A stretch of 64,000 bases of DNA from Geosiphon pyriformis uo1. Its lineage: Eukaryota > Fungi > Glomeromycota. The notes below the pieces were generated by a model, which saw only the letters and a program-made list of their open reading frames with translations, did not search any database and was not told the DNA's origin. Location of the stretch: contig JAAOMT010000480.1 in NCBI GenBank assembly GCA_016748015.1, positions 1 through 64,000 on the forward strand. The letters are read 5' to 3'. Positions 2 through 58,366 of the stretch are shown piece by piece. The translations under genes were made by a program, and so were the position numbers. How positions within the stretch are numbered: position 1 is the first letter of the stretch; every line of letters begins with the position of its first letter.

Positions 2-199
2 GAAAATGTCCTACAAAACCCAATACTTCAACAAATGAAGATTCAGTATATTGGAAAACTCACAGAACTGAAATTTCAACAATTTTCAGACCAGATCACT
101 TCAATCAATTTTGACTACTATCTTAATACCACAGATAGTGCTTGGACTTTGACGGAGCTCAGTCTTGAGGAGGAGATTATGTTACCAGTAGAATTTTAG
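2..199 (+). pseudogene. 3' end of accessory ORF3 of a family C Gypsy element, running through the PPT into the LTR
   Basis: Translates ENVLQNPILQQMKIQYIGKLTELKFQQFSDQ...ELSLEEEIMLPVEF*, nearly identical to 2277-2485. The PPT GAGGAGGAG lies just before the LTR at 180. Confidence 0.8.
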
Positions 200-1765: not shown

Positions 1766-2485
1766 ATGACTATTCCTCAAAACATTCAACAATTATTCCA
1801 AGAACTAATGTTAGCTTTAAAAACAATACTCAAATTATCTATTACTGTTACTAAAAACCACATTAATTATACCCAAACAGATGTAGTCACAAATGTAGCC
1901 CCAAATTCACAAAAATATCACCCATATAAGAAGAACACAAGAAGTTATTCTGAAATTCACCTGCCAGAACTTTTAAAGCTTGCTTTAAGAGAAAACTTAA
2001 TGCTCATTCTTATTAGTATTCCACCAAATGCTACTATTTAACAAAAACTTCAACTGTGTCTTAATGAAGAAAACTACGACTATACTCCAATATATAGATA
2101 TTTCTACATTGGAAAAACACTTCATGAATAAAAATGGGAGCTTACAGCAGCAAACCTTACAAAAGAAGCTATTTGGAAACAATTCCATAATGAATTCAAG
2201 ACAACAGCTGGATCTACAAACAGTCATTATAAACTAAGAGCTGCTCTTAGACTTTATGACCTATTCCACATCTGTGAAAACGTCCTACAAAACCCAATTT
2301 TACAATCTTTAAAGATTCAATACATTGGAAAGCTCACAGAACTGAAATTTCAACAATTTTCAGACCAAATTTCTTTAATAATTTTGGATTATTATCTGGA
2401 AATTACAGACAGTACTTGGACTTCGATGGAGCTCAGTCTTGAGGAGGAGGTTATGTTACCAGATGAAATTAGAGATATTATTTAA
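1766..2485 (+). pseudogene. Family C accessory ORF3 (~239 codons, two TAA stops consistent with CAA>TAA)
   Basis: One frame runs MTIPQNIQQLFQEL...YRYFYIGKTLHE*KWEL...RAALRLYDLFHIC...IGKLTELKFQQF...ELSLEEEVMLPDEIRDII*. A decayed homolog lies downstream of integrase at ~28218-28923. Confidence 0.8.
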
Positions 2486-3442
2486 CATGAAATTATTATT
2501 ATAATTTCCATCATTAATTAACATATATTATCATTTCAAATTATCACTTATTACATTAGCAAAATGTCCAAAATTATTATTTAATTAATAACCCAATTTG
2601 TATATGACACAAATGTAACCTAATTGCGATGATCAATCATGCAATACCCCAAACTATATAACATTCAAAAAATTCGCCAAAATTTGTAGAAATTCACCAA
2701 AATAATTGATAGTTCACCAAAATATCTAATAGTTTGCAGAAATAACTTGTAGTTCGCCAAAATGTATCTTTAGTTCAGTGAAATTATAGAAAATAGCAAA
2801 GTTCAAGTTCATAAAATAGTGTTACAACAAGTTGTATAAAAGAAGAGCTTCTTTCTTTAAGAAAATGTATCTTACTTCAGATTTAAAAACAATTAGAATA
2901 ATCCTCTACACCCAAAAGACAAATAAATATCAAATAATTCAAAAAGCCAAATTCTTAATTATTTCCCTTGAAATTAACCAATTCTTACTAACAGTTTGAA
3001 ATTGATTAGCTACCAATTTCAGTAGACTGTTAAAACACTTCCAGGCCTGGATCCGAAATGACTTCCATAAATCATCAGTTTTACTTTTTCTTTTACATTT
3101 CTTTTATTCTCTTTTTTTTCTTATTATAAATCATTTGGATAGTCTACAGATGAGAATTCCTGTAGAAGAGTTGACTTTCACAGCAAAGTAACTATATATT
3201 TTTTAGTGAGCTTCCAGACGAGCAATTCCTGGGAAAGAGTTGACGTTTACTGCAAAGTAACTATACAAAGTAACTGGCATGGAATTGGCCATTCCACTTA
3301 TAAGCCCAGCAGTTCAAATTATAGAAGATAATTTGAAGATAAATTCAGTTACTGGAGGTTCAACCACATCCAAAAAACGTGAATCCACAGCAAACAGACA
3401 TCAACAACAATTAAGAAAAGAGACCAAAAACCTCCAGTAACA
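2454..3442 (+). repeat. Family C 3' LTR (~990 bp)
   Basis: PPT GAGGAGGAGG at 2441-2450, termini TGTTA...TAACA, internal TTCGCCGAAAT-like repeats. Followed directly by family A gag sequence. Confidence 0.9.
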
Positions 3443-4981: not shown

Positions 4982-5169
4982 TTTTAAGTCTGTTGTAATA
5001 ATAATAAATTATTATGATTAAATATTTCTTTGCAAAAACTTATTTTCCAAATTTGAGGCATAGTAAATTGTGTAGTAGCAGTTAAAGAGAAAAAATCAGT
5101 TTTTTTGTTAGCTGAACCAATTAGTTTAATATCCAGAAAAGAAATAAAAGAAGTACAGAAGTTTTTTTC

Positions 5170-13572: not shown

Positions 13573-16500
13573 TGTTACAGGTTGAAATAACAAGCTAATG
13601 GATAACAAGGAAGAATAAGATTGTAGGGTGATGGAAATAATCAAAAGAGAATTCAACTTTAAAGAGCAAATTGAATGAGTATAGATTCAATGTGTGAGAT
13701 CAATCTCATAAAATATCTCAGTCGCTATTCTTTTCAAAGGTAACTGGAGAATCTGAAGGTAGAGGGATAGTCTATACTGTTAACAATTGATCACCACTGG
13801 TATAATTCTATGTCTCATGTTGGCGCTCTTAAAATTCAATATTAGGTATCAACTTGTGCTTTTCAGTTATGTTTATTCAAATAATCTTCAAATGCTACAA
13901 TTATATATGTCAGGAAAAGGCCAACAAGTAATTTTTTATCCTAAGATGTTTGGATACTTGAAGGTAGAGAAAGGGAAATTAGCGATAAGAGAGTGATTGA
14001 GATGAAAGTTGTTATTTTTATTTATTTGATTCTTGTCTGAGAGATAATTTTCTATAGCTAAAAGACTTATTATTTATATAGCTATTGAAAGTGGTCAACA
14101 ACTAGGTCAATGATCACTATCTAAAAATAGAGTGACTAATTATATGTTATCAGTGGCTAATACATGTGATAATTAATAAAAATTATGAGTTTTAACTATA
14201 ACATTATTCTCTTCAAAAAGATTGAGCTTTGGCAAAATCAAGCTATTTATAGGGTATTCTAATTAAAGGGTTTTGTCTAACTCAAAACTAACTAGTTTGT
14301 TGAAGTCTTTTGTGGATAGAGTATATAGTACTTGAGGCGAAATAAGCTTTGTATCCAAGAAACCAAATCTTTGTATAAGAGTTTTGGCTCTTCTTGCAAT
14401 GGTCAAAACTCTTAGAACATCTAAACGTATAATGCCCAAAATTTCCACTTGTATCTCTGAAGTTGTTTTTTTCATGAGCTTCATTTCTTCTATAATTTCA
14501 CCAAGACAACCATAGAATTTTAGTTGTCTTTCATATAACAAGTTTTTGTCTATGGGCAAGATTTTCTTAATCGTTCTTCCAATTGTCATGGAAAGTGTAA
14601 GTATTGCTGCTGTTATGCTTTCCAGCAAATACTTATCCATTTTGCTACCAATTCTTTCTTTTCTGGTAGTGGTTTTCTTTGGTCTAATAACAGTATGTGT
14701 TCCATTGTTATTAGTTATGATGGTTTGTTTTCCAATGGTCAGAGTAGCATTTGGATAATTTTTGATCCAGTACTCATAGAGAGTATAGAAAGCATTTTGA
14801 ATGTTTTGATCTAGGAAATAATTGTTCATGTTGATTGAAGATACCTCTGTTTTGGGAATGGTACATTTATTTATATCTGATTTTTGTTGATCATTTGGAT
14901 TGGTATTACCACAACAGGTAACCAATCAGGTCGTTTGTAATATTTCTTGAGTCATGTGCCATAAACAGGGCGATCATTGAAGATTGTTTCATATTGATCT
15001 TATAAGATATAAGAACCATTGTTCAAAACTTTGTTAACTATAAAGGGTCTTTTCCACTGGCTAGAAAATTTATTACCATAGACATTGTTTTTGTCTGAAT
15101 GGTATTCTAAAACTAAGTCACCAACACTTAAGGAAAGTGTTTTATATGTTTTCTTTTTTTTAAGCTTCTCTTGAAATTGTTTTATCTTTTTAAAGGCAAT
15201 TATTCATGCTTCTATTAATGAGTCAAGAATGGTACTAAGTCTTCTTTGCAAAGTGTCTTTGTAATTCCCTATTGTTATTTCTTCAAAGGGTATTATCTCA
15301 ATGTCAGTTTCTATTGGTAGGATTGCCATTCATCTATAGAGTAGATAAAAGGATTCATAACTTGTTATGTCATGATTCACAGTTCTATAAGCGAACAAAG
15401 CTGAAGACAGTACTTTGTCCCATAAGTTTATTTCTTCACTGGTTTTGGCTAGGATTTCACATAGAGTTCTATTGAAATGTTCTACTAGGCCATTTGTTTA
15501 GGGGTGATAAGGAGAGGAAAGTTTGTGACATATTCCCATTTTTTTGCAAAGTTCTTCAACAAGTGTACTGAGAAAAGCTCTTCCTCTGTCAAATAAAAGT
15601 TCTTTGGGGCAGCCATGGTGACAAATAATATCTTCATAAATGAAATTGGCTATTGAGACTGCTGTTTGGTCTGAAGTGGCTTTTGCTTCTATCCACTTTG
15701 TAAAATAATCGGTAGCTGTGATAATGTATCTGTTGCCATTAGGAGTTATTGTTAAAGGTTCAACAACATCTATACCAATTCTGTCAAAGGGTTGACCAAC
15801 AGAGATTAGATGGATATCTTCTTTGCGATTGGGTTTTCCTCTTCTTTGGCAGATATTACAGGTTTTAATGTATTCAGCAATGTCTTTTTCCAAGGTAGGC
15901 CAATAATAACGAGCTAGAGTTTTCTGAATTGTTTTTGTTTTTCCAAAGTGTCTAGCTAATGGATCAGTGTGCATATTGTAGATCACAATTTTTCTTTCTT
16001 CAAATCTAATAACTCTCTGGGAGTGGTCAGGATCTTTTCTATTTCTTTTATAAAGTTGGTTTTAGCGAATCAAATAGAAATTTGATTGTTTGCACAAATG
16101 TTCTCTTTGTTGTTGTGTGTATTTTGGTGGGTATTGTTCTTTACCCAAAAATTTCATTAAGACAGAGTAGTTGTCCAAGTTCATTATCGTGTTTGTCAAA
16201 AAGGGGAATTACTAATAATTAAGTTGGTTTGGTTTGAGAGGGTTGTTCTGTCACTGAATGGTAAGTCTGGAGAGAGTGTCAGTGTTTTGATGATTAGCTT
16301 CTTTGTGATGTTGAATATCATAGTCGAATTCATCCAAGTGGAGTATTCAGCAAATTATCTATTTGTGTTCTAGCCTCTTTTTGTTGCACAGCCAAACCAA
16401 AGCTTGGTGATCTGTTACCACCAAAAACTTCACACCAAGAAGATACTTATGCAAAAGAAGTAGCAGCCACTTGAGGAGTGGAAGCCATGACAGGAGCAGG

Positions 16501-19346: not shown

Positions 19347-22300
19347 ATATTAAATCTTTTTTTGGATAATAATTCACCTAGTTTTTTGGTTATTTTATTA
19401 CAAAAAATAGAATTTTTTCTAATCCAGCCAAAGTTGAAAAAGTCAAAAACATTAAACAATTAATAAATATTTATAAACTATGCTCTTTCTTTGAATTGAT
19501 CTCCTATTATTGCAAATTCATTAAAGATTTCTCTAAAATCACTTTTCTTTTTAATCAGCTATTCAAAAAAAATGTCAATTATTATTGGAGTATATATCAA
19601 CAAAAGCATTTGAAACTTTGAAGAAAAAATTAGTTACAGAACCTACTTTTATGCAATCTGATCTGAATCAATTTTTAATTTTTTATACTAATATATTCAG
19701 CTATAGACTTGGTACTGTTTTCTTACAGAAAAATAAAAATGGCAAGGAACATACTATAGCATATACAAGTAGAATACTCTTACCAGCAAAACAAAATTAT
19801 TTAATTATTAAGCAAGAATGCTTAACAGTAATTTAGACAACTAGTTATTGGAATAAATATTTTTTTGGTATAAAATTTCTAATGATAACAGATTATCAAG
19901 CCTTAGTTTGGTTATGTAACAAAAAAAAACTTAATCACAAAAAAATAATTCACTAGATACTCCACTTGGATGAATTTAACCATAACATTCAACATTACAA
20001 AAGAACAAATTATCAAAATACCAATGCTTTTTCCAGACTTATCACTTAGTAATAATACAATTTTTACAAACCAAACCAACCTAATTATTAGTAACTCCTT
20101 CTTAACCAAACATGATAATAGACTTGGACAACTACTCTGTACTAATAAAATTTTTGGATAAAGAACAATACTCATCAGATTACACTTAACAGCAAAGAAA
20201 ATATTTGTGCAAACAATCAAATTTCTATTTAATTTGCCAGAACCAACTTTATAAAAGAAATAAAAAAGATTTTAACTATTTTCAAAGAGTTATTAAATTT
20301 AAAGAAAGAAAAATTGTGATTTATAACATATACATTAATCCATTAGTTAAACACTTTGAAAAAACAAAAACAATTCAGAAAACTTTAACTTGCTATTATT
20401 GGTCTATCTTGAAAAAAGACATTGCTAAATACATCAAAATCTGTAATACTTGTCAAAAAAAAAGAAAACCCAATTACAAAAAAATATACACCCCATTTCT
20501 GTTAGTTAATTATTTGACAGAATTGATATAAATGTTGTTAGATTTTTAACAGTAACTTCTAATGACAACAGATACAGTATATTATTATAGTTATTAACTA
20601 TTTTACAAAATAGGTAGAAGCAAAAGCCATTTCAAATCAAATAGCAGTTTTTATAGCCAATTTTATTTATAAAGATATTATCTGTCATTATGGCTGTTTC
20701 AAAGAACTTTTATTTGACAAAGAAAGAGCTTTTCTTAATATACTGGTTAAAAAACTTTGTAGAAAAATGAAAATACATTATAAACTTTTTTTTTCTTACT
20801 ATTTTTAAACAAATGGCTTAGTAGAATGTTTTAACAGAATATTATATAAAATCTTAACCAAAACCAGTAAAAAAACAAACTTATAAAACAAAGTACTGCT
20901 TTCAGCTTTGTTTGTTTATAGAACTGTAAATTATAACATAACAAGTTATAAACCTTTTTATTTATTTTATGAATGAATGGCAACTTTACTAATAGAAATT
21001 AATATTAAGACAATATCTTTTAAAAAAATTACAATAAAAAATTACAAAAACATTTTGTAGAGAAAATTTGGTATCATTTTTGATTCCTTGGTAGAGGCAC
21101 AAATAATTGCTTTTAAAAAGATAAAACAGTTTCAAAAAAAGCTTAAAAAAAAATCTATAAAACACTTTCTTTAAGTATTGATAACTTAATTTAGAATATC
21201 ACTTAAACAGAAACAAGATCTATAGTAATAAGTTTTTTAGCCAATAAAAAAGATTCTTTTTAGTCAAAAAAGTTTTAAATAATGGTTTTTATATCTTACA
21301 AAATCAATATAAAACAATTTTTAATAATTACTTTTTTTATGGTACATGACTCAAAAAATATTACAAATGACTTAATTGGTTACCTGTTGTAGTAATACCA
21401 ACCCAAATAATTAACAAAAATCAAGTATAAATAAATGCATCATTTCTAAAACATAGGTATTTTTAATCAACATAAACAATTATTTTTTGGATCAAAATAT
21501 TTAAAACATTTTTTATATTCTCTATAAGTATTGGATCAAAAACTATCCAAATGCTACTTTAATTATTAGAAAACAGATCACCATAACTGATAACAATAGA
21601 ACACATACTGTTATTAGACCAAAAAAAATTACTACTAGAAGAGAAAAAACTGGCAACAAAATAAATAAATATCTGTTGAAAAGCATAACAGCAGTAATAC
21701 TTTTACCTTCTAGTACAATTGAAAATACAATCTAAAAAATTCTACTTATAGATAAAAATTTGTTATATAAAAGACAATTAGAATTTTATGATTGTTTTAG
21801 TAAAATTATAGAAGATATAAAGCTCATAAAGAAAACAACTTCAGAAATACAAATAAAAATTTTGGGCATTAAATAATTAGATATTCCAAGAGTTTTAACT
21901 ATTGCTAAAAAAGCCAAAACTCTTATATAAAGATTTGGTCTCTTAAATACAAAACTTATTTTGTCTTAAATATTATATATTTTATTCACAAAAAACTTTA
22001 ATAAACTATTTAGTTTTAAGCTAAACAAAACTTTTCAAATAAATTATTCTATAAATAGCTTGATTTTGTTGAAGCTCAATTTCTTTGAAAAGAATAATAT
22101 TATAATTGAAACTCATATTTTTTATTAGTTATTACATGTATTAGCTACTAATATTATATAATTAGCCACCCTATTTTTAGATAGTAATCATTGATCTAAT
22201 TAATAACCTAACTGTTGATTTGATCATTGATCTAATTATTGACTTAGTTATTAATCTGATTATTGATTATTTTCAATAGCTATATAAGTAATGAATTTTT

Positions 22301-31264: not shown

Positions 31265-32059
31265 TGTTATAGGTAATTATTTGGGATGTTAAAACACATA
31301 ACAAACTTGTAACTTGATGCTTAATAGCTGGTAATATTGATAATATCTGAAAATTTTGTAATTTAAAGATTTTAGTTAAGTCTTTTGTATAATAAACAAA
31401 AATTCAATTAATGGTTTCTTCTGTGAATTTTATTTTTTAGCATGATAACCAGTTTATTTTAACAGTTATGTACTTTTGATAAGCTATTCTGAAATTTTTA
31501 CTCTTATTTTCAGATCTTTTACCAGGCTATTCTTAATATTAAATACTTAGTACTTAATTTCTTTAATTAATTAATAATAATAAAAAAATAAAACAAAAGA
31601 AAAAAAAATAAAATAAAAATAAAAAAAAAATAAAAAAAAAAATAAAAAATTAGTATTTTGTTAATAGCCATAATTAAGAGCTATTAATTTAGTGTAATTA
31701 AGTATTAGATTTTATTAATATAGAGTGTTAATAATAGAAAAGTGATTAATATTCTTAATTAAATAATGATAACATAGATTGAATGATAATTAGATATTTA
31801 TTTAATATTTAATGTGTTTCTACTTTAAGTTATAGAAACTATTTTTTAAAGAAAGAGTATTGGGTTCTGAACTTTATTAAATTCTGAATACTTTTTTGTT
31901 TTTAACACTCTTGCTATATATACATAATTTATGTTATACAAGATTCTTGAAAAATTCTGCAATTCTCTAAGAGAATTCTGGAATTTTCCATTTTACTATG
32001 CCTATTTTTGATTGGCTATTTTATCTATTATTATAATTTCTAATTTCTATGAATAATAT

Positions 32060-32722
32060 TATTCTTTTTTTTTTAATATTGAGCTTTATTAAGATCTCTT
32101 AAATCTCCTAAATTTTTCTTTTAGATTAACTTTATAATTTTTTTTTTGAGAATTACTTGGGCAATATTGGTCTGTAATTTTTTAAATTGGGTATTAGTAA
32201 TTTTCTCTAATTGGTTAATGATTACTATATTTATTGTTGAGTATAACAGTATTTTTGGACAGTTTTGAAACTTTGTTTGTAATCAGTATATTATTTATGC
32301 TTGGGTGAATAGATTGTTTTTTTCCACAAATTGTTTAAATTGTTATAATATAGTTGTATTAAATATATATTTTGTTTTATCTGTATATAAGTTCTAAATA
32401 TTGAGCTTTTGTTCCAAATAATAATAGCAAAAGTTTCTTGAAAATTGTTGTATTTACCATTTCCAATTTTTTTTGTTAACTCTTTATATAATACTATTAT
32501 TTTTAATGTTTCTATAATTATTTTTACTTTAGCTATTATATCTTCTACTATACTTTTATATTTTTTGTATACTTTATGTTGTATCTTATATTAAAGTTTC
32601 TGTTTTTTTTTTGTATATTAAATAATTTGTTAGTTGATTGTGATTTCCATGTTCAGTTTTTAATATTTGATTAACTGAAATAATTATTAGACTAACAAGT
32701 AAATATTATTAGTAATTTCCAT
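32060..32722 (-). pseudogene. Family B accessory ORF3 relic
   Basis: Manual translation gives MEITNNIYLLV**LFQLIKY*KLNMEITIN*QII...FCYYYLEQKL...FKQFVEKNNLFTQA*IIY*LQTKFQNCPKIL...NQLEKITNTQFKKLQTNI, which aligns by eye with family C and A ORF3. Confidence 0.6.
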
Positions 32723-35700
32723 CTTTCTATTTGTTTTTATTACTTGTATTGGTTTTTTATATATTATTCTTGTAGATTAATTTGACATGTTTGTGTCAAT
32801 GATAATAATTGGTTTCAAATTTCATGAAATTTTATTTAATTGAACTAATATTTATTGTATCTCTTGTTGTAAAATAATATTGGTAAATGATAATGTTATA
32901 TTGTAATATGATTTTAGTTGATTTCTATGTGCTACTTTAGCTAAAATTTTGTTGTTTTATCTTAATTTATAAGCTTTATTTCCAAAAAATTTTTCAATAT
33001 GAAATAGTCTATTCCATTTGAGATTGAATTTTTTACTTCATTGTTTTTTTACTTTGATATAATATAAAAGTACTTTGTTTTTAATCCTGAATTTGACTGG
33101 TTTATCTGGTAATTAGTTGGCATGTTATTTTTTTTGATTTGCTTGTAACTTTTGAATATTATCAGCTGTTTTTTGTCTTTTGTTTTCTAATGTTTTTATT
33201 ATGTCATATTTTTTTTTGAAAGTTGGCTTCTGTTATTGATTTTGTTGGATATGTATTAATATCTATCTTAACTAATAATGTTGCTGTTTTATCATAAATA
33301 AGTTCAAATAATGTTGTTTGTATGGTATTTTGTTTTATTGTTTAATAAGCAAATAATACTAATAATATAAACAAATCTCATTTATCCTGGTTTTTTTGGC
33401 TGATCTTAACTGTCACTTTACACAATATTCTGTTGAATTTTTTGACTAAGCCATTTGTTTATGAATAATATTGTTATGGATTGAAGTAACAAGCTAATAG
33501 ATAGCAAAAGAAAACAAAATTGTAGAATAATAGAAATAATTAAAGAGAGAATTACAATAGAAGAGCAAATTAAATGAGTAAGAATTCAATACACATAATT
33601 AGTTTCATAAAAATTACAGTTGCAAATCTTTTCTGAAAATTTGAAAGTAGAGAAATAGTCTGTAATTGTCAACAAGATAACACTATTGCTATTATTCTAT
33701 GTCTTAACTTAGTAATTCTTAGAATCAATAACAGATATTATTGTGCTTTTCAATTGTTTTTTTATTTAATGAATTACAAAAGCAAGCAATTGCTCTTAGG
33801 CTAATTTTAACAATACAAATCAAAAAAAAGAAAAAATATGATATGTGAATGCCAACAAGTAATCTTTTATTTTAATATATTCAAATACTTGAAAGTAAAG
33901 AAAAGAGAATAAGCAATATAAAAAGAAGTAATTGATAGTGGATTTTATTTTGTTACTTTAATTATGTCTTTCTATAGCTAAAAGACTTATTATTTATATA
34001 GCTATTGAAAGTAGTCAATAACCAAATTAACAGTCAAGTCAATGATCAGATCAATAATTACTATCTAAAAATAAGATAACTAATTATATGACATCAGTGG
34101 CTAATATATGTGATAATTAATAAAAAGTATGAGTTTCAACTATAATATCATCCTCTTCAAAAAGATTGAGCTTTAGCAAAATCAAGTTATTTATGGAATA
34201 ATCTAATTAAAGAGTTTTGTTTAATTCAAAGCTAACTAGTTTGTTGAAATTTTTTGTAAATAGAGTATATAATACTTAAGGCAAAATAAGTTTTGTATTC
34301 AAGAGATCAAATCTTTGTATAAGAATTTTGGCTCTTTTAACAATAGTCAAAACTCTTGAAACATTTAATCATATAATGCCCAAAATTTTTATTTGTATCT
34401 CTGAAGTTGTTTTTTTTATAAGTTTCATATTTTTTATGATTTTACCAAAGCAATTGTAGAGTTTTATTTGTCTTTTATATGACAAGTTTTTGTTAATATA
34501 TAAGATTTTTTTAATTGTAATAGAAGGTAAAAGTATTGCAAATGTTATACTTTCCAACAGATATTTATCCATTTTGTTACCAATTTTTTCTTTTCTGGTA
34601 GTGGTTTTCTTTGGTCTAATAACAGTATGTGTTCTACTGTTATCAGTTATGGTGGTCTGTTTTTCAATAGTCAAAGTAGCATTTGGATAGTTTTTGATCC
34701 AATACTCATGAAGAATATAGAAAACATTTTGAATGTTTTGATTCAGGAAATAATTGTTCATATTGATTGAAAATATCTCTGTTTTGGGAATGATGCATTT
34801 ATTTATATTTGATTTTTGTTGATCATTTGAATTAGTATTACCACAACAGATAATCAATTAGGTTGTTTGTAATATTTCTTGAGTTGTGTACCATAAACAG
34901 AGTAATCATTAAAAATTGTTCTATTTTGAACTTATAAGATATAAAAACTATTATTCAAGACTTTGTTAACTAAAAAGAGTCCTTTTTACCAGCTAGAAAA
35001 TTTATCACTATAGACATTGTCTCTGTTTAAGCAGTATTCTAATACTAAGTTATCAATACTTAAAGAAAGTGTTTTATAAGTTTTTTTTTCTTAAGCTTTT
35101 CTTGGAACTGTTTTATTATTTTAAAGGCAATTTTTTGTGCTTTTACCAATGAGTCAAGAATAGTAATAAGTCTTCTTTGCAAAATATCTTTATAATTTTC
35201 TATTGTGATTTCTTCAAAAGATATTGTTTTAATATTAGTTTCTATTAGTAATATTGTTATGCATCTATAGAGCAGATAAAAAGATTCATAACTTATTATG
35301 TTATGATTTACAGTTTTATAAGCAAACAAAGCTGAAGGCAGTACTTTGTCTTATAAGTTTGTTTCTTTACTGGTTTTGGCTAAAATTTTACATAGTGTTT
35401 TATTAAAACGTTTCATTAAGCCATTTGTTTAGGGGTGATAAAAAGAAGAAAGTTTATGATGTATTTCCATTTTTCTACAAAGTTTTTTAACCAGTATACT
35501 AAAAAAAGCTCTTTCTTTATTAGATAAAAGTTTTTTGGGGCAGTTATAACAGCAGATAATATCTTCATAAATAAAATTGGCTATTAAGACTGCTGTTTAG
35601 TCTGGAGTGGCTCTTGTTTCTACTCACTTTGTAAAATAGTCAGTAGTTGTAATAATGTATCTATTGCTATTAAGAGTTATTGTTAAAGATCTAACAACAT

Positions 35701-38700
35701 TTATACCAATTTTGTCAAATAGTTGGCCAACAAAGATTGGATAAATATCTTTTTTTCGATTGGGTTTGCTTTTTTTTTAACAAGTATTACAGGTTTTAGT
35801 ATATTTAGCAATGTTTTTTCCCAAGGTAAGCCAATAATAGTGAGTTAAAGTTTTCTAAATTGTTTTTGTTTTTCCAAAGTATTTAGCTAATAAATCAGTA
35901 TATATGTTGTATATTAAAATTTCTCTTTCTTCAAATCTGATAACTCTCTAAGAGTAATTAGAATTTTTTCTATTTCTTTTGTAAAGTTGGTTCTGGTAGA
36001 TCAAATAAAAATTTAATTGTTTGCACAAATGTTTTTTTTGCTACTGAGTGTAATCTGGTAGATATTGTCTTTTACCCAAAAATCTCATTAATGCAAAGTA
36101 GTTATCTAAGTCTATTATCATGTTTGTTTATAAGAAAGTTACTAATAATTAGGTTCGTTTGGTATAAAAAGATTGTACTGTTACTGAATAGTAAGTCTAG
36201 AAAGAGCATCAGTGTTTTAATAATTAATTCTTTTGTGATGTTAAATATCATAGTCAAATTTATTCAAGTAAAGTATTCAGCAAGTTATTTGTTTGTGTTC
36301 CAGCTTTTTTTTATTGCACAGCTAAACCAAGGCTTAATGATCTATTATTACTAGAAATTTCATGCCAAAAAAATATTGATCCCAGTAACTAATAATCCAA
36401 ACTATTGTTAAGCATTCTTGTTCAGTAACTGAATAGTTTTTTTCTGCTGATGTAAAAATTTTATTGACATATACTATAACATGTTTCTTACCATTTTCAT
36501 CTTTTTGTGAGAAAATAGCACCAAGTTTATAGCCAAATACATCAGTATGTAAGATAAAAGATTGATTCAGATTAGGTTGTTTAAGAATTGGTTTAGTAAC
36601 AAGTTTTTTCTTTAGAGTTCAAAAGCTTTTTGTTGATAAATGTTCCAGTAATAATTGACATTTTTCCTGAGTAGCTAATTGAAAAGAAAAACAATTTTGG
36701 AGAAATCCTTAATAAATTTGTGATAATAAAAAGCCAAACCAAAGAAAGAGTGTAATTCAGAAATATTCATTAGTTGTTTAATGTTCTGAACTTTTTCAAC
36801 TTTATCTTGAGGCCAGCATTTTTAAGGAGGTCAAAAACTTTTTGCAAGTGTTTAAGATGTTTATTTTAGGTTTTTGAATATGCTATTATGTTGTCTAAAT
36901 AAACCAGAACAAAGTTTTCTTTTACTGATTCAAAAACTTTGTTCATTAGACATTGAAAGATGAGAAGAGCATTAGTGAAACCAAAAAACATGACTGTAAA
37001 TTCATAGGTACTATACTTGGTAATAAAGGCAGTTTTCTTTCTGCTTTCTGAATTTATTTTTACTTGCCAGAATTTAGTAGTTAAGTCAATAGTTAAGAAG
37101 AAAGCAGCACTATTGAATTTGTTTAGCATTGTATCAATTTTGAAAAGTAGATACATATCTCTTATAGTGATGGTATTTAATTAGTAATAGTCAACACAAA
37201 AGTGTAGGGTTTCATCTTTTTTGAATATTACTACAACAGAAAAAGCTCATTCACTTTTGGTTTTTTGTATAAATCCAAGATTTTTTATTCAGATTATTTC
37301 TTTCTTGATAAACTTATCATTGTGTTGATTGGATTAATAAGACTTTAAATAAATGAGACAAGTTTCTCTGATGGTAATAGTGTGTTGTATTACATGGGTT
37401 TATCCAGAAATATCATCTTTTTTTGAGATAACTGAGCTATTTCTAGCCAACAGATTTTTAATGTCTATTTTTCTTTCTTTAAAGAAGTGTTTTTTTTGTT
37501 CTATTATAAGTGATTGGATCTTAGATAATTTATTTTTAAAGAACTTTTGTACTTTTTTTAGTTCTTTTCTTGGTATTAGGCTAATAAGTTTCCAATCTTT
37601 ATAATAAATTAGGCAGGATTTGTATTCATTACTAGAAGAATACAAAGATTTATTATACCAATACCAAACACAAAGACCATGCCACCAATAATTGTATTTT
37701 GTTTTCTTGCCAGGTTTTTTATCAAAAGTTCTTCTGAGGATATTATAGTAAGATCAACAAATTAGCTTGCCATTTACAATAATTTCTTTTTTGTTTTTAA
37801 CATTGTTTAATGGCTTGTTATTGCTAATAAAGATAGTATAAACAAGTTTAGCAGTTTCTTCTTGTTCTTTTTGATCTTTTTTTTTATCATTCTCTTTATC
37901 ATTTGATTCATCTGATTGCTTATTTTTTTGATTTTACTTAAGTACTGAAGAAATTGTTTAATAATAATACTTAATTACAATAGACTTTTCAATACATCTG
38001 ATGATTACTTCACAAAGTTTATAGTCAAGTAGTGTTTTGGCTTTCTTAAACCATTTATTGCCAACAATTATGGTGTACTTTTTTGCTTTAAATACTTCCA
38101 TGTCAGTTTCAATGCTAATGCTATTAATATAAACAGAAACAACTTTGGTAATATCAAGTTTTTTTTTTTTGTCATTATGCACATTGGTTATAAGTTTGGT
38201 TAAAAGTTCATTAATTTTTTTACCAATTGCTTTAAGAAAATATTTGGCAATAACATTAACAGATGATCTACTGTTTAAAATTAGATCAATAAAGTAGCCA
38301 GCCATTTGGGCTTTGCAAATTAAAGGAGTAACATTGCTGTTGTTAGTAAGTTTAGCTTGGTAAGAATGCTTGTTGGTTTTTGGTTTTTTTTTCTTTGGGA
38401 TTAAGAATTTGCAAAGGTTTTTTCTGAATTGTGAATGAGTTATTAATTGGCCAAAAGTAATGTAAACTAGAGTTTTCATGAGATTTTTGATAATAATATA
38501 GAGACCAGATTTCTGTACAATTTTTGAAGGTTTCAGCTTTAAAAAATTCTTAAAAACTTTAATCTTTAGTGGTTTATTGTTATTAGCAGTTGATATAAAT
38601 GTTTTGTTTAAGTCTAGAACAAAATCAATCTTGGCTTTTTTTTTTGTTAATTCAGAGATGTTGTTTGCTAGTTCATCCATATTATGATTATCATTAGTTA

Positions 38701-39031
38701 GGTTAAAAACATAAAAGAAGTTTTTTTTTGGTTGGCTTGCACTTTTATCCTTTGGAGATGTACTTACTAGTTTAAAGACTAATAAATAGTAACTTCAATT
38801 AAGGAATTCTTTTCAAAAAAATTGATATTGGCATAATTAGATCTTTGATTGGAAACATTATTATTAATAATTCTGTTGTTTTAATTGTCATTGTTTTTAG
38901 AAACTGAAAAAAACAGAGAAGAATTGTTGCAATCTTTGGAAAAATATTCAGTTATTTCACAATAATAATACACAGGTGGGCTATGATTTTGTTGTTTTTG
39001 ATAAAGAAGTTGCTGGAGCTAATTAAAATAG

Positions 39032-39697
39032 TGTTATGGTTGAAACCCATAATTTTTATTAGTTATCACATGTATTAGCCACTGATGTTATATAATTAGC
39101 CACTCTATTTTTAGATAGTGATCAATGACCTGATCATTGACCTGATCATTAATCTGATCATTGACCTAGTCATTGACTACTTTCATTAGTTATATAAGCG
39201 ATGAGTCTCTTAGCTGTAGAAAATCATCTCTCAGACAAGAATCAAATAAATAAAAATAACAACTTTCATCTCAATCACTTTTTTATCGTTAATTTCCCTT
39301 TCCTTATCTTCAAGTATTCGAATATTTTAGGATAAAAGATTACTTGTTGGTCTTTTCCTGACATATATAATTGTAGCATTTGAAGATTATTTAAATAAAC
39401 GTGACTGAAAAGCACAAGTTGATATCTGATATTGAATTCTAAAAGTGCCGACATGAGGCATAGAATTATACCAGTGGTGATCAATTGTTAACAGTATAAA
39501 CTATCCCTCTACCTTCAGATTTCCCAGTTATCTTTGAAAAGAATAGCAACTAAGATATTTTATAAGACTGATCTCACATATTGAATCCATACTCATTCAA
39601 TTCACTCTTTGAAGTTGAATCCCCTTTGATTATTTCCATCACCCTACAATCTTGTTCTCTCTTGCTATCCATTAGCTTGTTACTCCAACCTGTAACA
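39032..39697 (+). repeat. A1 5' LTR
   Basis: TGTTA...TAACA termini, 12-bp tandem repeats at 39120-39180, TATA-like TATATAAG at 39191. Confidence 0.95.
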
Positions 39698-39703
39698 TAA
39701 AAG

Positions 39704-39720
39704 TGGTGCTCCCTGTGAGG
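39704..39720 (+). promoter_or_regulatory. Primer-binding site, probably elongator tRNA-Met
   Basis: TGGTGCTCCCTGTGAGG is the complement of CCTCACAGGGAGCACCA, which resembles eukaryotic elongator tRNA-Met 3' ends. The same PBS occurs in family B (55293-55308, minus strand). Confidence 0.8.
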
Positions 39721-39749
39721 TTGTCAAAATTCACTTATTCCCTTATTGT

Positions 39750-41306
39750 ATGGATGATTACTCACATCTGCCACAGCAATCAGAAGAACACTTTGCAGCA
39801 CACAACAGAAACAACTTAGATTTCATTGAACTTAATTTTCTGCCCTCCTGCTTGATCTGCTTTTCCCTTGAAAAACAATCTAGTTGACAATTCTAAGACT
39901 TTTGGAACTGGTTCTTGAACAAGCATTCAGCTGAAACCTATACAGCTTATACAACCTATTACTTTGACCAAGCTTATTTTGAAAATGACTTTGAAGAAAG
40001 AAACAACAGTATCAATCAGCTCTTATATTCTGCAACCTTTGAACAACAGCCCTCTGATTTCGAATATCTGAATCATCAAATTCACATTTGGATTGCTGCC
40101 CATCAAACAACTGAAACTCCCTTTGAAACAGAAGAAGAAAGCTATCAAACTGTCTCTGTTTTTGATCTTTTATTAAGCAAATTAGACTCGTCTACACAAA
40201 CAGTTACCCCTGAACCAATGGCTAATGACCCCATGCAAACAAACATTCTGGCCGCCCTCCAAGGTATACAAATTGCTCTAGGAAGAAGAAACAATACCCC
40301 ACTACCACTATTTAGAGGTGATGCACAAGATCCAATTGAATGGTTGGATGATTTTGAGAAAGCTGCCACAGCCAACCAGTATGATAAAGAATACAAGTTC
40401 CAAATTGTTGGTGGTTATCTCCAAGGCTTTTCTGCTATCTGGTTTTCACAAGAAACAGATGCCAATGCTCAACACAAAATAATCAGATGGACACCAATCA
40501 ATGCTAGAGAAGAAAATACCTCTTTTACTACCCAATTTGAGGCCAAGTTCAGAACCCCAATATTAATATCCAAATGGCGCATGGAATTGAAAAGAAGAAC
40601 CCAAGGCCCTGGAGAAGTAGTGACTAAATATGCTAAAGCTATTAGAAAGCTAATCAAATGTGTAGACTCTGGGAGAAACTGGACAGAAGAACAAAAGATT
40701 CATTCCTTCACAAAAAGATTGAGAACTGATTTATCTTATGCTCTTTGGCCTCTCTTGGCCCTAAAAGACAACCCTACAATGGACATGGCCATTGAACTTG
40801 CCCAACGAATTGAAGATAACCAAAGAATACATTTGGGATCTACACTTCCAGTTTTTGCTCCTGCTCCTGTCATGGCTCCTGCCCCTCAAATGGCTGCTGC
40901 TTCTTTTGCTGCCCAAACTCAAGATCCAAATGAACAATTAATTAATAAACTCACAGCCAATTTTGCCTGGTTATTAAAACCTTTGGCACAAGCAGTCAAA
41001 GATAACCAGCAACCACCAAGACTTAGATACAAACCTTGTTTTAACCAACCCCAGCAATCTCCCTATCAAAGACAGCAAAATTGTGGCCCACCTGTGTGCT
41101 ATTATTGTGGATTAACTGGACATTATTCAAGAGATTGTAACAATCCTTCACTGCCTTCTCTAGCTTTCAGAAACAATGACAACCAAAACAACAGACCCAA
41201 TAACAACAACAATGTCCCCAATTAAAGACCCAATCATGTCAACATCAATTTCTTTGGAGAGGATCTCCTAGTTGAAGCCACTGTTTATTAGCCTTTAAAC
41301 TGGTAG
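39750..41306 (+). pseudogene. gag: A1 gag (N-terminal HHCC-like domain, capsid, CCHC knuckle)
   Basis: ORF 39915-41225 contains DPIEWLDDFEKAA and CYYCGLTGHYSRDC. The TAA at 41223 is CAA in the copy near 6750, so the true stop is probably TAG 41304-41306. Confidence 0.9.
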
Positions 41307-41342
41307 GCGCACCTCCAAAGGGTGAGAGTGCAAGCCAACCAG
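41294..41342 (+). promoter_or_regulatory. Putative -1 programmed ribosomal frameshift signal
   Basis: T TTA AAC in the gag frame, with pol in the -1 frame. CTGGTAGGC pairs with GCCAACCAG and inner GCAC pairs with GTGC. Confidence 0.8.
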
Positions 41343-44300
41343 AAGAAAACCCCTTTTACACTTTTAACTTAACTGATGATGACCATGACATAGATGAACT
41401 AGCAATCAACCCCTCTGAATCCACAAGAAAGAAGAAAAAAGCCAAAGTTGATTTCGTTTTAGACCCCAATAAAGCTTCTACATCAACTGCTGACAACAAT
41501 AAGCCCCCAAAAGCCAAAGTTTTCAAGAACTCTTCAAAGTTAAAACCCCCAGAAATAGTACAAAAATCCGGCTCCTATTCTGTTGTCAAAAACCTCATGG
41601 AAACTCCAGCACATATAACCTTTGGCCAATTGATGACCCATCCACAATTCAGAAAAGATCTTTGCAAATCTCTGATTCCAAAAAAAAAGATACCCAAAAC
41701 CAACAAACGCTCTTGCCAAGCTGGACTTGCTGACAATAGCAATGTCACTCCTCTAATTTGCAAAGCCCAAGTGGCTGGCTACTTTATCGATTTGATCCTA
41801 GACAGTGGATTATCTGTTAGTGTTATTGTTAAACACTTTCTTGAAGCAATTGGCAGAAAAATTGATAAACCATCCACATGACCAATGACCAATGTGCATA
41901 GTAATAAGAAGAAAGGGCTTGGCATAGCCAAAGCTATTCCTGTCCGCATCAATGGCATCAGCATTGAAACTGATATGGAAGTATCTAAAGTGAAAGAATA
42001 CATCATCATTGTTGGCAATAAATGACTTAAGAAAGCAAAAGCTTTGCTTGATTATGAACTCTGTAAACTAACCATCAGATGTGGTGAGAAACCCATTGTG
42101 GTTAAATGTCGCCATTGGACAACTCCCCCAGTACCCAAACAGAGCCCAGAAGAAAATGAATCAGACGAATCAGATGATAAAGAAAGTGAGAAAGAAGAAG
42201 AACAAGAAAAACAAAAAGAAACTGCTGAACTCGCCTATACCATCTTCATCAGCAATAGCAAACCACTGGATAATGTCAAGGCAGATAAAAAAAAAATCAT
42301 TGTCAATGGCAAGCTGATCTGCTGGCCTTATTATGACATGCTCAGAAGAACCTTTAACAGAAAGCCAGGCAAGAAAGCCAAATACAGTTATTGGTGGCAT
42401 GATCCTTGTGCCTGGTGCTGGTGTGACAAACCATTGTATTCTCCTAGTGATAAATACATATCCTGCTTGATCTATTACAAAGATTGGGAACCAATCAGCT
42501 TGATACCCCATAAGGAAATAAAAGAAGTCCAAAAGTTCTTTGAAAATGAACCACCTGAAATCCAATCACTGGTTGTAGAACAAAAAAAACTCTCTCTAGA
42601 AGAAAGAAAGATAGACATTGAAAACCTGCTGGCTAAAAACAGCCCAGTTATCTCAAAAGAAGGTGAACCTCCTGGATGTACACATGTAATACAACACACC
42701 ATCATCACCAGAGAAACTTGTCCCATCCATTTGAAGCCCTATCAATCCAACTGGCACAATGATGAGTTTATCAAAAAGAAAATAACCCGAATAAAAAACC
42801 TTGGATTCATATAGGAAACCAAGAGTGAATGGACATTCCCGGTTGTAGTGGTATCCAAGAAAGAAGGAACTCTACACTTTTGTATTGACTATTGCCAATT
42901 AAATGCCATTACTGAAAGAGACATGTACCCACTTCCCAAGATTGATGCAATGCTAGACCAATTCCATGGTGCTGCTTTCTTCTCAACCATTGACTTGACT
43001 ACTGGATTCTGGCAAGTAGAGATGGATCCAGAAAGCAGAAAGAAAACTGCCTTCATCACCAAGTATGATATCTACAAATTCACAGTTATGCCTTTTGGTC
43101 TCATAAATGCTCTTTCCACCTTTTAATGCTTAATGGACAAAGTATTTGAATCAGTAAAAGAAAACTTTGTTCTAGTCTACTTGAATGACATAATGATATA
43201 CTCAAAAACCTGGGATGAACACCTTGAACATTTGTAAAAGGTTTTTGACCTTCTTAGAAATGCTGGTCTCAAGATCAATCCAATCAAATCATTCTTTGGA
43301 CGTCAATCCACCCAGTTCCTTGGCCATTTTATTACAAAAGATGGAATCTTCCCTGATCTAGCCAAAATTGAAAAAGTTCAAAACATTAGACAACCAATGA
43401 ATGTTCATGAACTATGCTCTTTTCTTGGTTTGGTCTCTTATTATCACAAGTTTGTCAAGGATTTCTCTAAAATCACCACTCCTCTCAATCAGCTACTTAG
43501 GAAAAACATCAATTATTACTGGGGCACTCATCAACAAAAAACATTTGAAATTTTGAAGGAAAAACTGGTTACAGAACCCATCCTCATGCAATCTAATCTG
43601 GATCGATCTTTTATTTTCCATACTGATGCATCTGGCTATGGACTTGGTGCTGTTCTTTCCCAGAAAAATAAAGATGGCAAAGAACATGCTGTAGCATATG
43701 CCAGTAAAACTCTCACACCAGCAAAAAGAAATTACTCAGTCACTGAGCAAGAATGCTTAGCAGTAGTTTGGGCTACCAGCTACTGGGACAAATATCTTAA
43801 GGGTGTGAAATTTTTGGTGGTAACAGATCACCAAGCTTTGGTTTGGCTACACAACAAAAGAAACCTGGAACATAAATAGATAACTTGCTGGATACTCCAC
43901 TTGGATGAATTTGACTATGAAATTCAACACTGCAAAGGAGCTAATCATCAAAACGCCGACGCTCTCTCCAGACTTACCATCCAGTGATAGTAAAACCCTC
44001 TCAAACCAAACCAACTTAATTATTTGTAACTCCTCTACAAACAAACACGATAATGGACTTGGACAACTACTCTGCCTTAATAGAATTTTTGGGTAAAGGA
44101 CAATACCCACCAAAATACACATAACAACAAAGAGAACATTTGCGCAAACAATAAAATTTCTATTTGATTTGTCAGAACCAACTTTATAAAAGAAATAAAA
44201 AAGATTCTGACTGCCCCCAGAGAGTCATCAGATTTGAAGAAAGAGAAATTGTGATCTACAATATGCACACTGATCTATTAGCTAGACACTTTGGAAAAAC

Positions 44301-45366
44301 AAAAACAATTCAGAAAACTCTAGCTTGTTATTATTGGCCTATCTTGGAAAAAAACATTGCTAAATACATCAAAATCTGTGATATCTGCCAAAGAAGAAAA
44401 AAACCCAATCACAAAGAAGATATCCATCCAATCTCTGTTGGTCAACCTTTTGATAGAATTGGTATAGATGTTGTTGGACCTTTAACAATAACTTCTAATG
44501 GCAACAGATACATTATCACAGCTACCGACTATCTTACAAAGTGGGTAGAAACAAGAGCCACTCTAGACCAAACAGCAGCCTCAATAGCCAATTTCATTTA
44601 TGAAGATATCATTTGTCACTACGGCTGCCCCAAAGAACTTTTATCTGATAGAGAAAGAGCTTTTCTTAGTACACTGGTTGAAAAACTTTGCAGAAAAATG
44701 GGAATACGTCACAAACTTTCCTCTCCTTATTACCCCCAAACAAATAACCTAGTAGAATGTTTTAATAGAACACTATGTGAAACCCTAGCCAAAACCAGTG
44801 AAGAAACCAACTTATGGGACAAAGTATTGTCTTTAGCTTTGTTTGCCTACAGAACTGTGAATTATGACATAACAAGTTATGAACCTTTTTATCTGCTTTA
44901 TGGACGAATGGCAACTCTACCAATAGAAATGAATATAGAAACAATACCTTTTGAAGAAATAACAATAGAAGATTATAAGAACATTTTGCAAAGAAGACTT
45001 GGTATCATTTTTGACTCATTGGTAGAAGCACAGATAATTGCCTTTAAAAAAATAAAACAATTCTAAGAAAAGCTTAAGAAAAAGAAAACATATAAAACAC
45101 TTTCTTTAAGTATTAGTGACTTAGTTTTAAAATATTATTCAGACAGAGACAATGTCTATGGTAATAAATTCTCTAGCCGGTGGAAAGAACTCTTTATAGT
45201 CAACAAAGTTTTGAACAATGGTTCTTATATCTTATAAGATCAATATGAAACAATCTTTAATAATCGCCCTGTTTATAGCACACAACTCAAAAAATATCAC
45301 AAACGACCTAATTGGTTACCTGTTGTGGTAATACCAACCCAAATAATCAGCAAAAATTAGATATAA
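41300..45366 (+). pseudogene. pol: A1 pol: aspartic protease, Cys-rich spacer, RT, RNase H, integrase (several nonsense changes)
   Basis: Motifs LILDSG; FCIDY...MPFGL...YLND (from YLDD); HTDASGYGLGAVL...TDHQAL; HHCC; GIDVVGPL...SDR...PQTN; C-terminal GPF/Y-type module. Confidence 0.93.
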
Positions 45367-45407
45367 ATAAATGCACTATTCCCAAAACAGAAATATCTTC
45401 AATCGAC

Positions 45408-46063
45408 ATGAACAATTATTTCCTGGATTAAAACATTCAAAACGCTTTCTATACTTTCCATGAGTATTGGATCAAGAACTATCCAAATGCTACTCTAACT
45501 ATCGGAAAACAAACCACCATAACAGACAACAGTAGAACTCACACTGTTATCAGACCAAAGAAAACAACTACCAGAAGAGAAAGAATTGGTGGCAAAATAG
45601 ATAAATACCTGCTGGAAAGCATAACAGCAGTGATACTTTTACCTTCTAGCACAATTGGAAAAATGATACAAGAAATCTTGCCCATAGACAAAAACTTGTC
45701 ATATGGAAGACAACTAGAACTCTATGGTTGTCTTGATGAAATCATAGAAGACATGAAGTTCATAAAGAAAACAACTTCAGAGATACAAGTGAAAATTTTG
45801 GGCATTATACGATTAGATGTTCCAAGAATTTTAATCATTGCTAAAAGAGCCAAACTCTTATACAAAGATTTGGTCTCTTGAATACAAAGCTTATTTTGCC
45901 TCAAGTACTATATACTCTATCCACAAAAGACTTCAACAAACTAGTTAGTTTTGAGTTAGACAAAACCCTTCAATTAGAATACCCTATAAATAGCTTGATT
46001 TCACCAGAGCTCAATCTCTTTGGAGAGGATGATATTACAGTTGAAACCCATAATTTTTATTAG
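45408..46063 (+). pseudogene. A1 accessory ORF3 (stops plus one frameshift), terminating inside the 3' LTR
   Basis: ATG at 45408. ORFs 45630-45881 and 45878-46063 are pieces of it. Homologous to 14174-14829. Confidence 0.8.
46022..46032 (+). promoter_or_regulatory. Polypurine tract of A1
   Basis: GGAGAGGATGA abutting the 3' LTR. Confidence 0.85.
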
Positions 46064-46708
46064 TTATTACATGTATTAGCCACTGATGTCATATAATTAG
46101 CTACTCTATTTTTAGATAGTGATCAATGACCTGATTGTTGACCTGATCATTGACCTGATCATTGACCTAGTCGTTGACCTGGTCATTGATCACTTTCATT
46201 AGCTATATAAGTGATGAGTCTCTTAGCTGTAGAAAATCATCTCTTAGACAAGAATCAAATAAATAAAAATAACAACTTTCATCTCAATCACTCTCTTATC
46301 GCTAATTTCCTTTTCTCTACTTTCAAGTATCTGAACATCTTAGGATAAAAGATTACTTGTTGGCCTTTTCCTGACATATATAATTGTAGTATTTGAAGAT
46401 TATTTGAATAAACGTGACTGAAAAGCACAAGTTGATACCTGATATTGAATTCTAAGAGTGCCCGTGAGGCATAGAATTATACCAGTGGTGATCAATTGTT
46501 GACAGTATAGATTATCCCTCTACCTTCAAATTCCCCAGTTACCTTTAAAAAGAATAGCAACTAAGATATTTTATAAGACTGATCTCGCACATTGAATCCA
46601 TACTCATTCAATTTGCTCTTTGAAGTTGAATTCTCTTTGATTATTTCCATCACCCTACAATTCTGTTCTCCCTTACTATCCATTAGCTTGTTACTCCAAC
46701 CTGTAACA
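46033..46708 (+). repeat. A1 3' LTR
   Basis: Direct repeat of 39032-39697 with one extra 12-bp unit. Confidence 0.95.
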
Positions 46709-55300: not shown

Positions 55301-56107
55301 GAGCACCAAATATTACAGGTAATTATTTGGGGTCTCAAATCAAATTACAAACTCATAACTTGGTGCTTAATAGCTGATATAATAATGTTGGTCTCTAAAA
55401 GTTTAGGTTGTCTGAGGATTTATGTTGACTAAAAGTTTAAGTTGAGTTCTTTGTATAATGGACAGAGATTCAATAGTTGTTTTCAATAGTTTTTTGGAAT
55501 CACAGTTCTGTCAATTTTTTTTTCAGCTTAATGGCTAGCAATCTTTTAGTAAGCAATCTGTATTTCTTATGTGTTTTACCTATTTGCAGAAGTCTTTTAC
55601 CAAGCAATCTTTAATATTAATAACTTAGTGTTTTAATCTCTAATCAATTAGCCAACAACAAGAAATAACAAAATAAAATAAAATAAAATAAAAAAAAGAA
55701 ATAAGTCAAGACAATAAATATTAATATCCTGTTAATAGCCGTGATCAAAAGCTATTGTTCTAGTATGATTTAAGTATCAGTTACTATCAACATAAAGTAT
55801 TAATAGTAAAGAGTGAATTGAGATAACAAATAATTATTTATTAATATTTGTGAATTAGAAGGTTGCTTAGATAAAATCTAAATTAAGAGATCTGTTTCTT
55901 CTGCTTCTAATACTACTGATATATATATTTATTTGAGATTCCTCAATTTTTTTATTCTTTTTGCCAGAAATCCTGGAATTCTAAAATCCTGTGATTTTTT
56001 ATATGAGAATTCTATAATTTCTGAAATCTTGGAATTCCCCATTTTACTATGTCTACTTCTGATTGACTAATATATACTACTATAATTCCTATCTTTTATG
56101 AGTAACA
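49372..56107 (-). mobile_element. Family B element B2, internally deleted (keeps gag, PR, Cys-rich domain, dUTPase and the RT start)
   Basis: LTRs at 49372-50221 and 55311-56107, TSD ATGT, PBS. RT ...FCVNY*KLN is joined at ~50280 to the pre-PPT sequence. Confidence 0.9.
51048..51442 (-). pseudogene. dUTPase domain in family B pol (B2)
   Basis: Relics of all five trimeric dUTPase motifs in order: DAEFNL, ASKSNLA, IIDAGYV, EKIAQ, SGFEFTS. Confidence 0.85.
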
Positions 56108-57974: not shown

Positions 57975-58366
57975 ACTTGTAGATTCGAATTTTTTTATCA
58001 TTTTTACTAAAATTCCTAACTTTTTTTTTGTTTCTACTAACATTAACTAAGCTATTTTAATTAAAGACAGAAATATTGTCTGTGTTATCTTTTTATTTGG
58101 TTCAATTATGTATTTTTTTCTGAGTTATTTTGTAGTATTGCAATAATATTCCCCACATATTCTGCATTAATTATTTTTTTTCTGATATTAATTTTTTTCT
58201 TTATTAAATTAAATCTGAAGATTAATTGAACTATTATTATTGTTGAAATTTTCAGTATTATTTTCAGATCTATACTGATATATAAATGAGATTCCAATTA
58301 GATAGCAGTTTTTTCTGGATATCTGAAATTAAACTCTACATTAGTATCATATACACATTCTGGCAT
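57975..58366 (-). pseudogene. dUTPase domain in family B pol (B1)
   Basis: IINAEYVGNIIAILQN; colinear with the B2 dUTPase. Confidence 0.75.

Follow-up and report, generated by a model that had tools for sequence, protein, structure and literature searches.

Fungal Ty3/gypsy retrotransposons are usually drawn as gag plus pol. Errantiviruses additionally have an env gene between pol and the 3' LTR, and the Env protein has a signal and a transmembrane segment and is about twice as long as the proteins described here. In the sections available of PMC7264820, extra ORFs in this position are described as env-like and antisense forms in plants and as one antisense form in Botrytis. Here, we analyzed a 64,000-nt stretch of Geosiphon pyriformis DNA (from here on, the window), in which three families of Ty3/gypsy elements (A, B, and C) have an ORF in the same position (ORF3). 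ORF3 proved to be a genuine accessory gene family that is distinct from env, has been kept by selection, and belongs to one lineage of fungal Ty3/gypsy elements; as far as our searches reach, it is undescribed.

ORF3 shares its position with the errantivirus env but is half as long and has no transmembrane segment. Compared to the plant aORF-3S of Athila and Bagy2, as presented in the available text of PMC7264820, ORF3 is similar in slot, orientation, presence across copies, and unknown function; however, aORF-3S often have transmembrane segments and spliced messages, whereas the fungal ORF3 lacks a hydrophobic segment and extends across the PPT into U3. We found no sequence match of ORF3 to plant aORF-3S. 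The non-envelope ORF3s of bdelloids (PMC5408684, in the part available) are also non-env third genes, and several of these lineages have a dUTPase, as do families B and C; they are, however, captured enzymes (GDSL esterase and DEDDy exonuclease) with clear Pfam matches, while ORF3 here is predicted to be helical and has no Pfam match. VANC of VANDAL elements, based on what is accessible of PMC5735166, is a fast-diverging accessory protein found beside family-specific tandem motifs. VANC comes from plant Mutator-like DNA transposons, and any likeness to ORF3 would be functional only, with no homology claimed. The accessible parts of a fungal LTR survey (PMC3248453) mention no third ORF, and those of a TE survey of arbuscular mycorrhizal fungi (PMC11952901), in which LTR elements account for 41.2% of the G. 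pyriformis genome, do not mention the ORF3 gene. In the openly accessible literature searched, we found no description of ORF3 or of an ORF3 in Glomeromycotina LTR retrotransposons.

ORF3 copies and their host elements in the window

The original prediction listed eight ORF3 copies, and all eight are present at about the predicted places (Table 1); however, all are broken by stops or frameshifts, and 0/7 full-length copies has an open frame. The complete family A element has LTRs that are 91% alike, a gag with a zinc knuckle, and the target duplication ATAG, and its gag is followed by protease, RT, RNase H, and integrase in the order of Ty3/gypsy elements. RNase H also precedes integrase in B, in C2, and in L001, a metagenome stretch described below. 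Further marks of Ty3/gypsy elements seen here are TG...CA LTRs, a tRNA primer site, a PPT, and the 4-bp target duplications ATAG and ATAT. In A and B, a primer-binding site starting with TGGTGCTC, which we take to resemble an isoleucine tRNA primer, lies few bases after the LTR (39704-39720 and 62180-62200). Nested A and B insertions interrupt the outer family B element and stretch it to 32 kb; the ATAT duplication of this element is intact. A dUTPase domain lies between protease and RT in family B (51091-51478 and 57469-58402, minus strand) and is also present in the C-type gene models P0244 and P0249, while family A had no match. Numerous family A fragments with internal deletions, in which only LTR, gag, and protease are left, at 5166-25067 and 46715-47850 sit within one another in both orientations.

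The predicted position of ORF3 between integrase and the 3' LTR holds for 4/4 A copies reaching the 3' end, for C2, for B, in which ORF3 comes after the integrase tail, and for L001, but the copy at 1766-2485 (C1) follows the LTR of another element. The LTR interiors had been described as unrelated, and self-comparison of the window gave no LTR match across families (E<1e-10, >100 bp).

Table 1. Coordinates of ORF3 copies, host elements, and associated signals in the window
Feature	Position	Strand	Remarks
ORF3 copy C0, 3' end only	2..199	+	Subfamily C-b; 97% to P0068, 74% to P0010
C-type LTR behind C0	180..1720	+	Broken by assembly gap 532-1355
Five-copy array, 20-bp period	386-480	+	In C0-side LTR
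ORF3 copy C1	1766..2485	+	Subfamily C-a; 239 codons, internal TAA at codons 92 and 122
Conserved GGAGCTCA(A/G)TCTT signal and polypurine tract (PPT)	2428..2450	+	Encodes ELSLEEE tail of ORF3; same DNA signal in A, B, C, and L001
3' LTR of C1	2454..3442	+	TGTTAC...GTAACA (GTAACA at 3437-3442)
TTCGCCGAAAT-like near-palindromes, 20-bp spacing	2669..2763	+	U3 of C1, upstream of TATAAAA at 2835-2841
ORF3 copy A1	14173..14829	-	Open for 188 codons, one internal stop
ORF3 copy A2	21472..22128	+	Decayed
ORF3 copy C2	28218..28923	+	Frameshifted; behind decayed RNase H and integrase (26127-27992)
Outer family B element	31265..63011	-	LTR, gag, dUTPase, RT, RNase H, integrase, ORF3, LTR
ORF3 of family B	32060..32722	-	Frameshifted, many stops; behind decayed integrase
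ORF3 copy A3	34117..34761	-	Decayed
Complete family A element	39032..46708	+	LTRs, gag, protease, RT, RNase H, integrase, ORF3
ORF3 copy A4	45408..46063	+	One frameshift; ~53 nt past integrase stop
12-bp TGATCATTGACC array, family A	46120-46189	+	~5-6 copies, just before TATATAA

C1 has its ATG at 1766 and its stop codon at 2483-2485, 32 nt within its 3' LTR. It is 84% identical to subfamily C-a, and many intact 239-aa Geosiphon proteins are 82-87% identical to it; C1 itself is a dead copy. Only 45 nt separate its ATG from the end of the C0-side LTR (GTAACA at 1715-1720), with no integrase before C1, and no pol is visible for C1 and C0 in the window. A primer-binding site was sought between the left C-type LTR and C1, and none was found, while the A and B LTRs have one. 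Most likely, an element of the sister subfamily is nested here and separates C1 from its own pol; a C-b element would have inserted in the C-a spacer, with pol lying outside the window. As explanations of C1, a spliced retrocopy and a tandem mini-element (LTR-ORF3-LTR) both rank below this nested insertion because C0 and C1 are from different subfamilies and the left LTR has no primer site after it. The assembly gap inside the left C-type LTR consists of 824 N; an intact LTR of ~990 bp needs just ~270 bases in this gap, and, therefore, the gap is either overestimated or hides an insert.

Relationships among ORF3 proteins and selection on ORF3

The blocks quoted in the original prediction for family C (QNIQQLF, ITVTKNHI, YFYIGKTL, ALRLYDLF, and IGKLTELKFQQF) are present, as are those for A and B. 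Intact ORF3 proteins of 218-244 aa number in the dozens among the named proteins of G. pyriformis. Of 401 candidates retrieved with C1 (stops read as X) as the query, 203 had E≤0.001, and 119 of the 120 matches listed are G. pyriformis hypothetical proteins; the A1 frame gave 126 matches among 187 candidates, and the 120 listed comprise 119 Geosiphon proteins and the query. A profile of 52 C proteins had 35 matches among 1.84 billion representative proteins, 8 of which were looked up, including P0268 (E 8.9e-16), P0270 (7.3e-12), P0271 (8.5e-10), and P0273 (5.4e-5). The looked-up matches represent two metagenome clusters (P0268 and P0270/P0275) and further Geosiphon types, i.e., P0271/P0272, and P0273/P0274, a fourth family (D) with at least 50 members listed. 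This profile is shallow, and the matches listed include no named match outside Geosiphon; relatives were sought in phage records and IMG/VR, and none were found. The family B frame of the window is 35% identical to P0271 over 100 aa (E 7e-19), and its N-terminal frame gave a weak match (E 0.075).

After removal of the PPT-encoded tails, 15/15 pairs among six non-A representatives scored above 500/500 shuffles; B, C, and D are, therefore, homologous. Based on these sequence comparisons, we consider B, C, D, and the two metagenome proteins to be one protein family, in which identity between families B, C, and D is 20-37% and conserved residues are concentrated in Y-x-(I/L)-G, G-K-T-N, and A-x-R-L-Y-x-x-F. 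The likeness that had been seen by eye among the three window families greatly exceeds chance between B and C and is only borderline for A. ORF3 is selected and pol linked, but the prediction that it is kept across a whole fungal Gypsy clade goes beyond the matches, of which the named ones are all from Geosiphon, with two metagenome clusters in addition.

Linkage of ORF3 to Gypsy pol extends beyond the window. In a metagenome scan, 1/218 candidate stretches was confirmed, i.e., L001. In this stretch, RNase H is followed by an integrase that has an SH3-like tail; after a ~320-nt spacer come ORF3, which is open over 230 aa, the PPT, and an LTR starting with TGTTAC. The L001 integrase frame has one in-frame stop (1564-1566), while ORF3 is open. 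In some gene models, ORF3 is fused to an integrase-tail motif (8/145 C-type, 15/50 D-type, and 0/119 A-type), which supports that ORF3 is linked to pol elsewhere in the genome.

Between the C subfamilies, represented by C1 and C2, transversions affected 25.5 of 93 synonymous sites and 40.5 of 597 non-synonymous sites, giving a transversion pN/pS of 0.25 (Fisher p 1e-7), and 38/66 transversions were at third positions (p 1.5e-4). The ratio is, therefore, not near 1, in agreement with the original prediction. Within subfamilies, transversions are few, and transversion pN/pS scatters from 0.14 to 1.58. Decay after insertion is mostly by transitions and near neutral (pN/pS 0.69-0.99). These sequence data support that ORF3 has been kept under purifying selection. 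C-to-T and G-to-A decay is heavy in all C contexts, with CG highest and a 5' TC favoured. Classic RIP prefers CpA, a narrower context than that of the decay seen here. In the window, CpG observed/expected is 0.10, in line with a methylation-based defence. Rhizophagus TEs are CG methylated and yield small RNAs according to the available part of a preprint (bioRxiv 10.1101/2021.03.30.436303); together with the low CpG and the C-to-T decay, this makes host silencing pressure plausible.

Family A is quite probably homologous to the ORF3 of B, C, and D based on sequence comparisons, although the tests disagree. P0125 of family A aligns end to end with P0270 (24% identity over 216 columns, E 2e-4; Z 7.4, with 0/500 shuffles as high in both modes), 17/32 A members score above the null's 99th percentile, and the A profile-profile score of 79.7 exceeds 60/60 column and block shuffles, the reversed control reaching 66.9. 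Moreover, the A and P0270 models have the same predicted order of helix, strand, strand, and then helices. Alternatively, the A ORF could be an unrelated gene in the same slot, with the shared family consisting of B, C, and D alone. In favor of this, the hhalign probability for A does not exceed 2.4%, A HMM scores lie within those of shuffles, 90/1,000 shuffles equal the A profile against P0270, A1 of the window matches P0270 only at E 0.93, 5/6 local pairwise comparisons involving A lacked significance, and A is absent from the C-profile matches among the 1.84 billion proteins. However, A is an outlier in integrase too (tail identity 28-35%, compared to 46-69% among C, D, and L001), and a greater ORF3 distance is, therefore, expected; together with the P0125-P0270 bridge, this leaves the unrelated-gene explanation unlikely.

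The PPT signal, U3 arrays, and predicted fold

A GGAGCTCAATCTT-type DNA signal lies right before the PPT not only downstream in C1 (Table 1) but also at 46006-46032 and 32063-32086 in the window and at 3088-3115 in L001, and is conserved in all families despite differing LTR interiors. Possibly, it is a plus-strand priming or packaging signal. The last ~15 residues of ORF3 are dictated by the PPT signal. Because the ELSLEEEIML tail is translated from a DNA signal and PPT common to all families, it is no evidence of protein function, and the shared C-terminal block that the original prediction had included as protein evidence has to be discounted. In family D, whose proteins end in FAGAQF, this signal seems to be translated in a different frame. 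That ORF3 of A and C traverses the PPT into U3 was borne out, and both stop ~30 nt inside the LTR.

Each family has a different tandem array before the TATA-like box of its LTR. The TTCGCCGAAAT-like motif of family C has 17 matches in the window compared to 4.9 expected, a number reached in 0/100 shuffles. The family A array has TGATCATTGACC units (Table 1), the U3 array of family B has CAGAATT-type units, and that of L001, as seen by eye, has GCCCTAG-type units.

ORF3 has no hydrophobic segment, the best 19-residue Kyte-Doolittle mean being 0.44-1.29 in 7/7 representatives, and is, therefore, not env-like, as had been predicted. In the AlphaFold2 model of P0270 (24 sequences, mean pLDDT 58.5), core residues 80-165 form four helices with a pLDDT of 76-93, and confidence is low outside this core. 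The family A model is poor (pLDDT 43). ORF3 is predicted to consist of an N-terminal helix and a beta-hairpin followed by this helical core, which in the model closes with a turn (G-K-T-N) and a helix rich in R/K/Y. The metagenome proteins are acidic (pI 5.4 and 5.9), and the Geosiphon forms have a pI of 7.7-9.7.

Consistent with the prediction that ORF3 does not match an already described family, Pfam searches with the window copies and with 52, 32, and 24 aligned members gave no ORF3 match above the cut-off, and Foldseek with the P0270 model gave no match at E≤0.001 in the PDB and viral libraries. Below the cut-off, DUF1016_N (PF17761) matched 7/52 C members (best E 0.015; 12.9 bits compared to a Pfam cut-off of 32.8), and Atlas placed it at rank 20, at 0.85, for family C; for family A residues 60-190, Atlas gave no usable match. 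The predicted ORF3 fold is helical, as is DUF1016_N/YhcG, and weak alignments place the Y-x-I-G and R-L-Y-x-x-F helices in register; however, ORF3 (218-244 aa) has no PD-(D/E)XK nuclease Pfam match, while YhcG has this domain attached, as described in the accessible part of PMC1189080. Profile-profile comparison did not support DUF1016_N, for which hhalign gave <1% against 75 YhcG N-terminal parts and 3/40 and 23-32/60 shuffles scored as high. FtsQ, the sole match in a PDB sequence search (E 0.035), was rejected, since the matched region is presumably not a helical bundle. The best PHROGs match (E 0.0012) covers a 53-residue stretch of one protein of unknown function. Using VIA-align with the P0270 model, the best Z of 5.8, which is below the noise level for helical bundles, was obtained for the PNPase helical domain (rmsd 2.0, 60 aligned) and the CHD1 C-terminal domain (rmsd 3.3, 83 aligned), and the ParB/KorB/Spo0J domains (Z 4.2-4.3, rmsd 2.6-3.0 Å, 55-59 residues, ranks 36-41) were within this noise.

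Possible roles of ORF3

ORF3 is an accessory gene in its own right, encodes a soluble protein, and has been kept by selection in one lineage of fungal Ty3/gypsy elements. We tentatively propose that it acts as an activator or anti-silencer specific to its family by binding, through its core, to the LTR of the element that encodes it. ORF3 would be expressed from its own shorter transcript, its predicted four-helix core would bind DNA with the U3 array of its own family as the target, and the promoter of the element would thereby be activated or protected. The low CpG and the weak DUF1016_N leads to DNA-binding helical domains are in favor of this proposal, and the family-specific U3 arrays give indirect support for anti-silencing or trans-activation. 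A small, soluble protein that is predicted to be helical and diverges faster than pol, next to arrays specific to its family, is reminiscent of VANC proteins and their variable tandem targets (PMC5735166). Many LTRs, however, have tandem motifs in U3, and the arrays could equally serve host factors; in addition, the metagenome proteins are acidic, and the DUF1016_N lead failed the profile-profile test. It is more doubtful that ORF3 represents a new helical DNA-binding family, i.e., a sequence-specific trans-activator or anti-silencer co-evolving with family-specific U3 arrays in early-diverging fungal Ty3/gypsy elements.

Several other roles fit part of the data. ORF3 is small, soluble, predicted to be helical, and basic in Geosiphon, and a conserved RNA/DNA signal precedes the PPT in all families, as might be expected if ORF3 were an RNA-binding accessory factor acting on element RNA in export, packaging, or particle transport in multinucleate hyphae; retroviral accessory factors like Rev act in this way (PMC7264820, in the sections available). 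We consider this unlikely, with no RNA-binding Pfam family, no arginine-rich tract conserved across families, and no support gained for the RNA trafficking role that the original prediction had listed. ORF3 could also block a host defence protein (RNAi, methyltransferase, or cytosine-deamination machinery) by protein contact and without binding nucleic acid. Host-facing proteins often diverge fast, and ORF3 is only 20-37% identical between families compared to 46-69% for the integrase tail of C, D, and L001; also, the elements show heavy C-to-T decay, and B and C carry a dUTPase. The pN/pS of 0.25, however, indicates constraint and not positive selection, and we regard such a blocker as improbable. 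An integration-targeting cofactor in place of a chromodomain, also listed originally, would fit an integrase with an SH3-like tail and no chromodomain match and the elements piled into each other in the window, but nesting is common in LTR-rich genomes, and ORF3 is separate and not fused to integrase, with nothing tying the two together physically, making this role very unlikely. Finally, the env position and the last ~15 residues set by the PPT signal could suggest that ORF3 is an env-like membrane protein or no gene at all but merely cis-acting DNA; this is largely refuted by the lack of a hydrophobic segment, the codon-position bias, the pN/pS of 0.25, and the open 230-aa frame of L001.

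Several hundred Geosiphon "hypothetical proteins" can be re-labelled as retrotransposon genes. The small soluble proteins and the short candidate target arrays of several families lend themselves to binding and reporter assays in all combinations. An accessory gene other than env that these elements have retained would show how they beat host silencing in an LTR-rich lineage. If the proposed activator/anti-silencer function is true, a fungal LTR retrotransposon would carry a regulator comparable to VANC or to those of complex retroviruses, and ORF3 would be a candidate for having caused the burst of LTR elements that make up ~41% of the Geosiphon genome.
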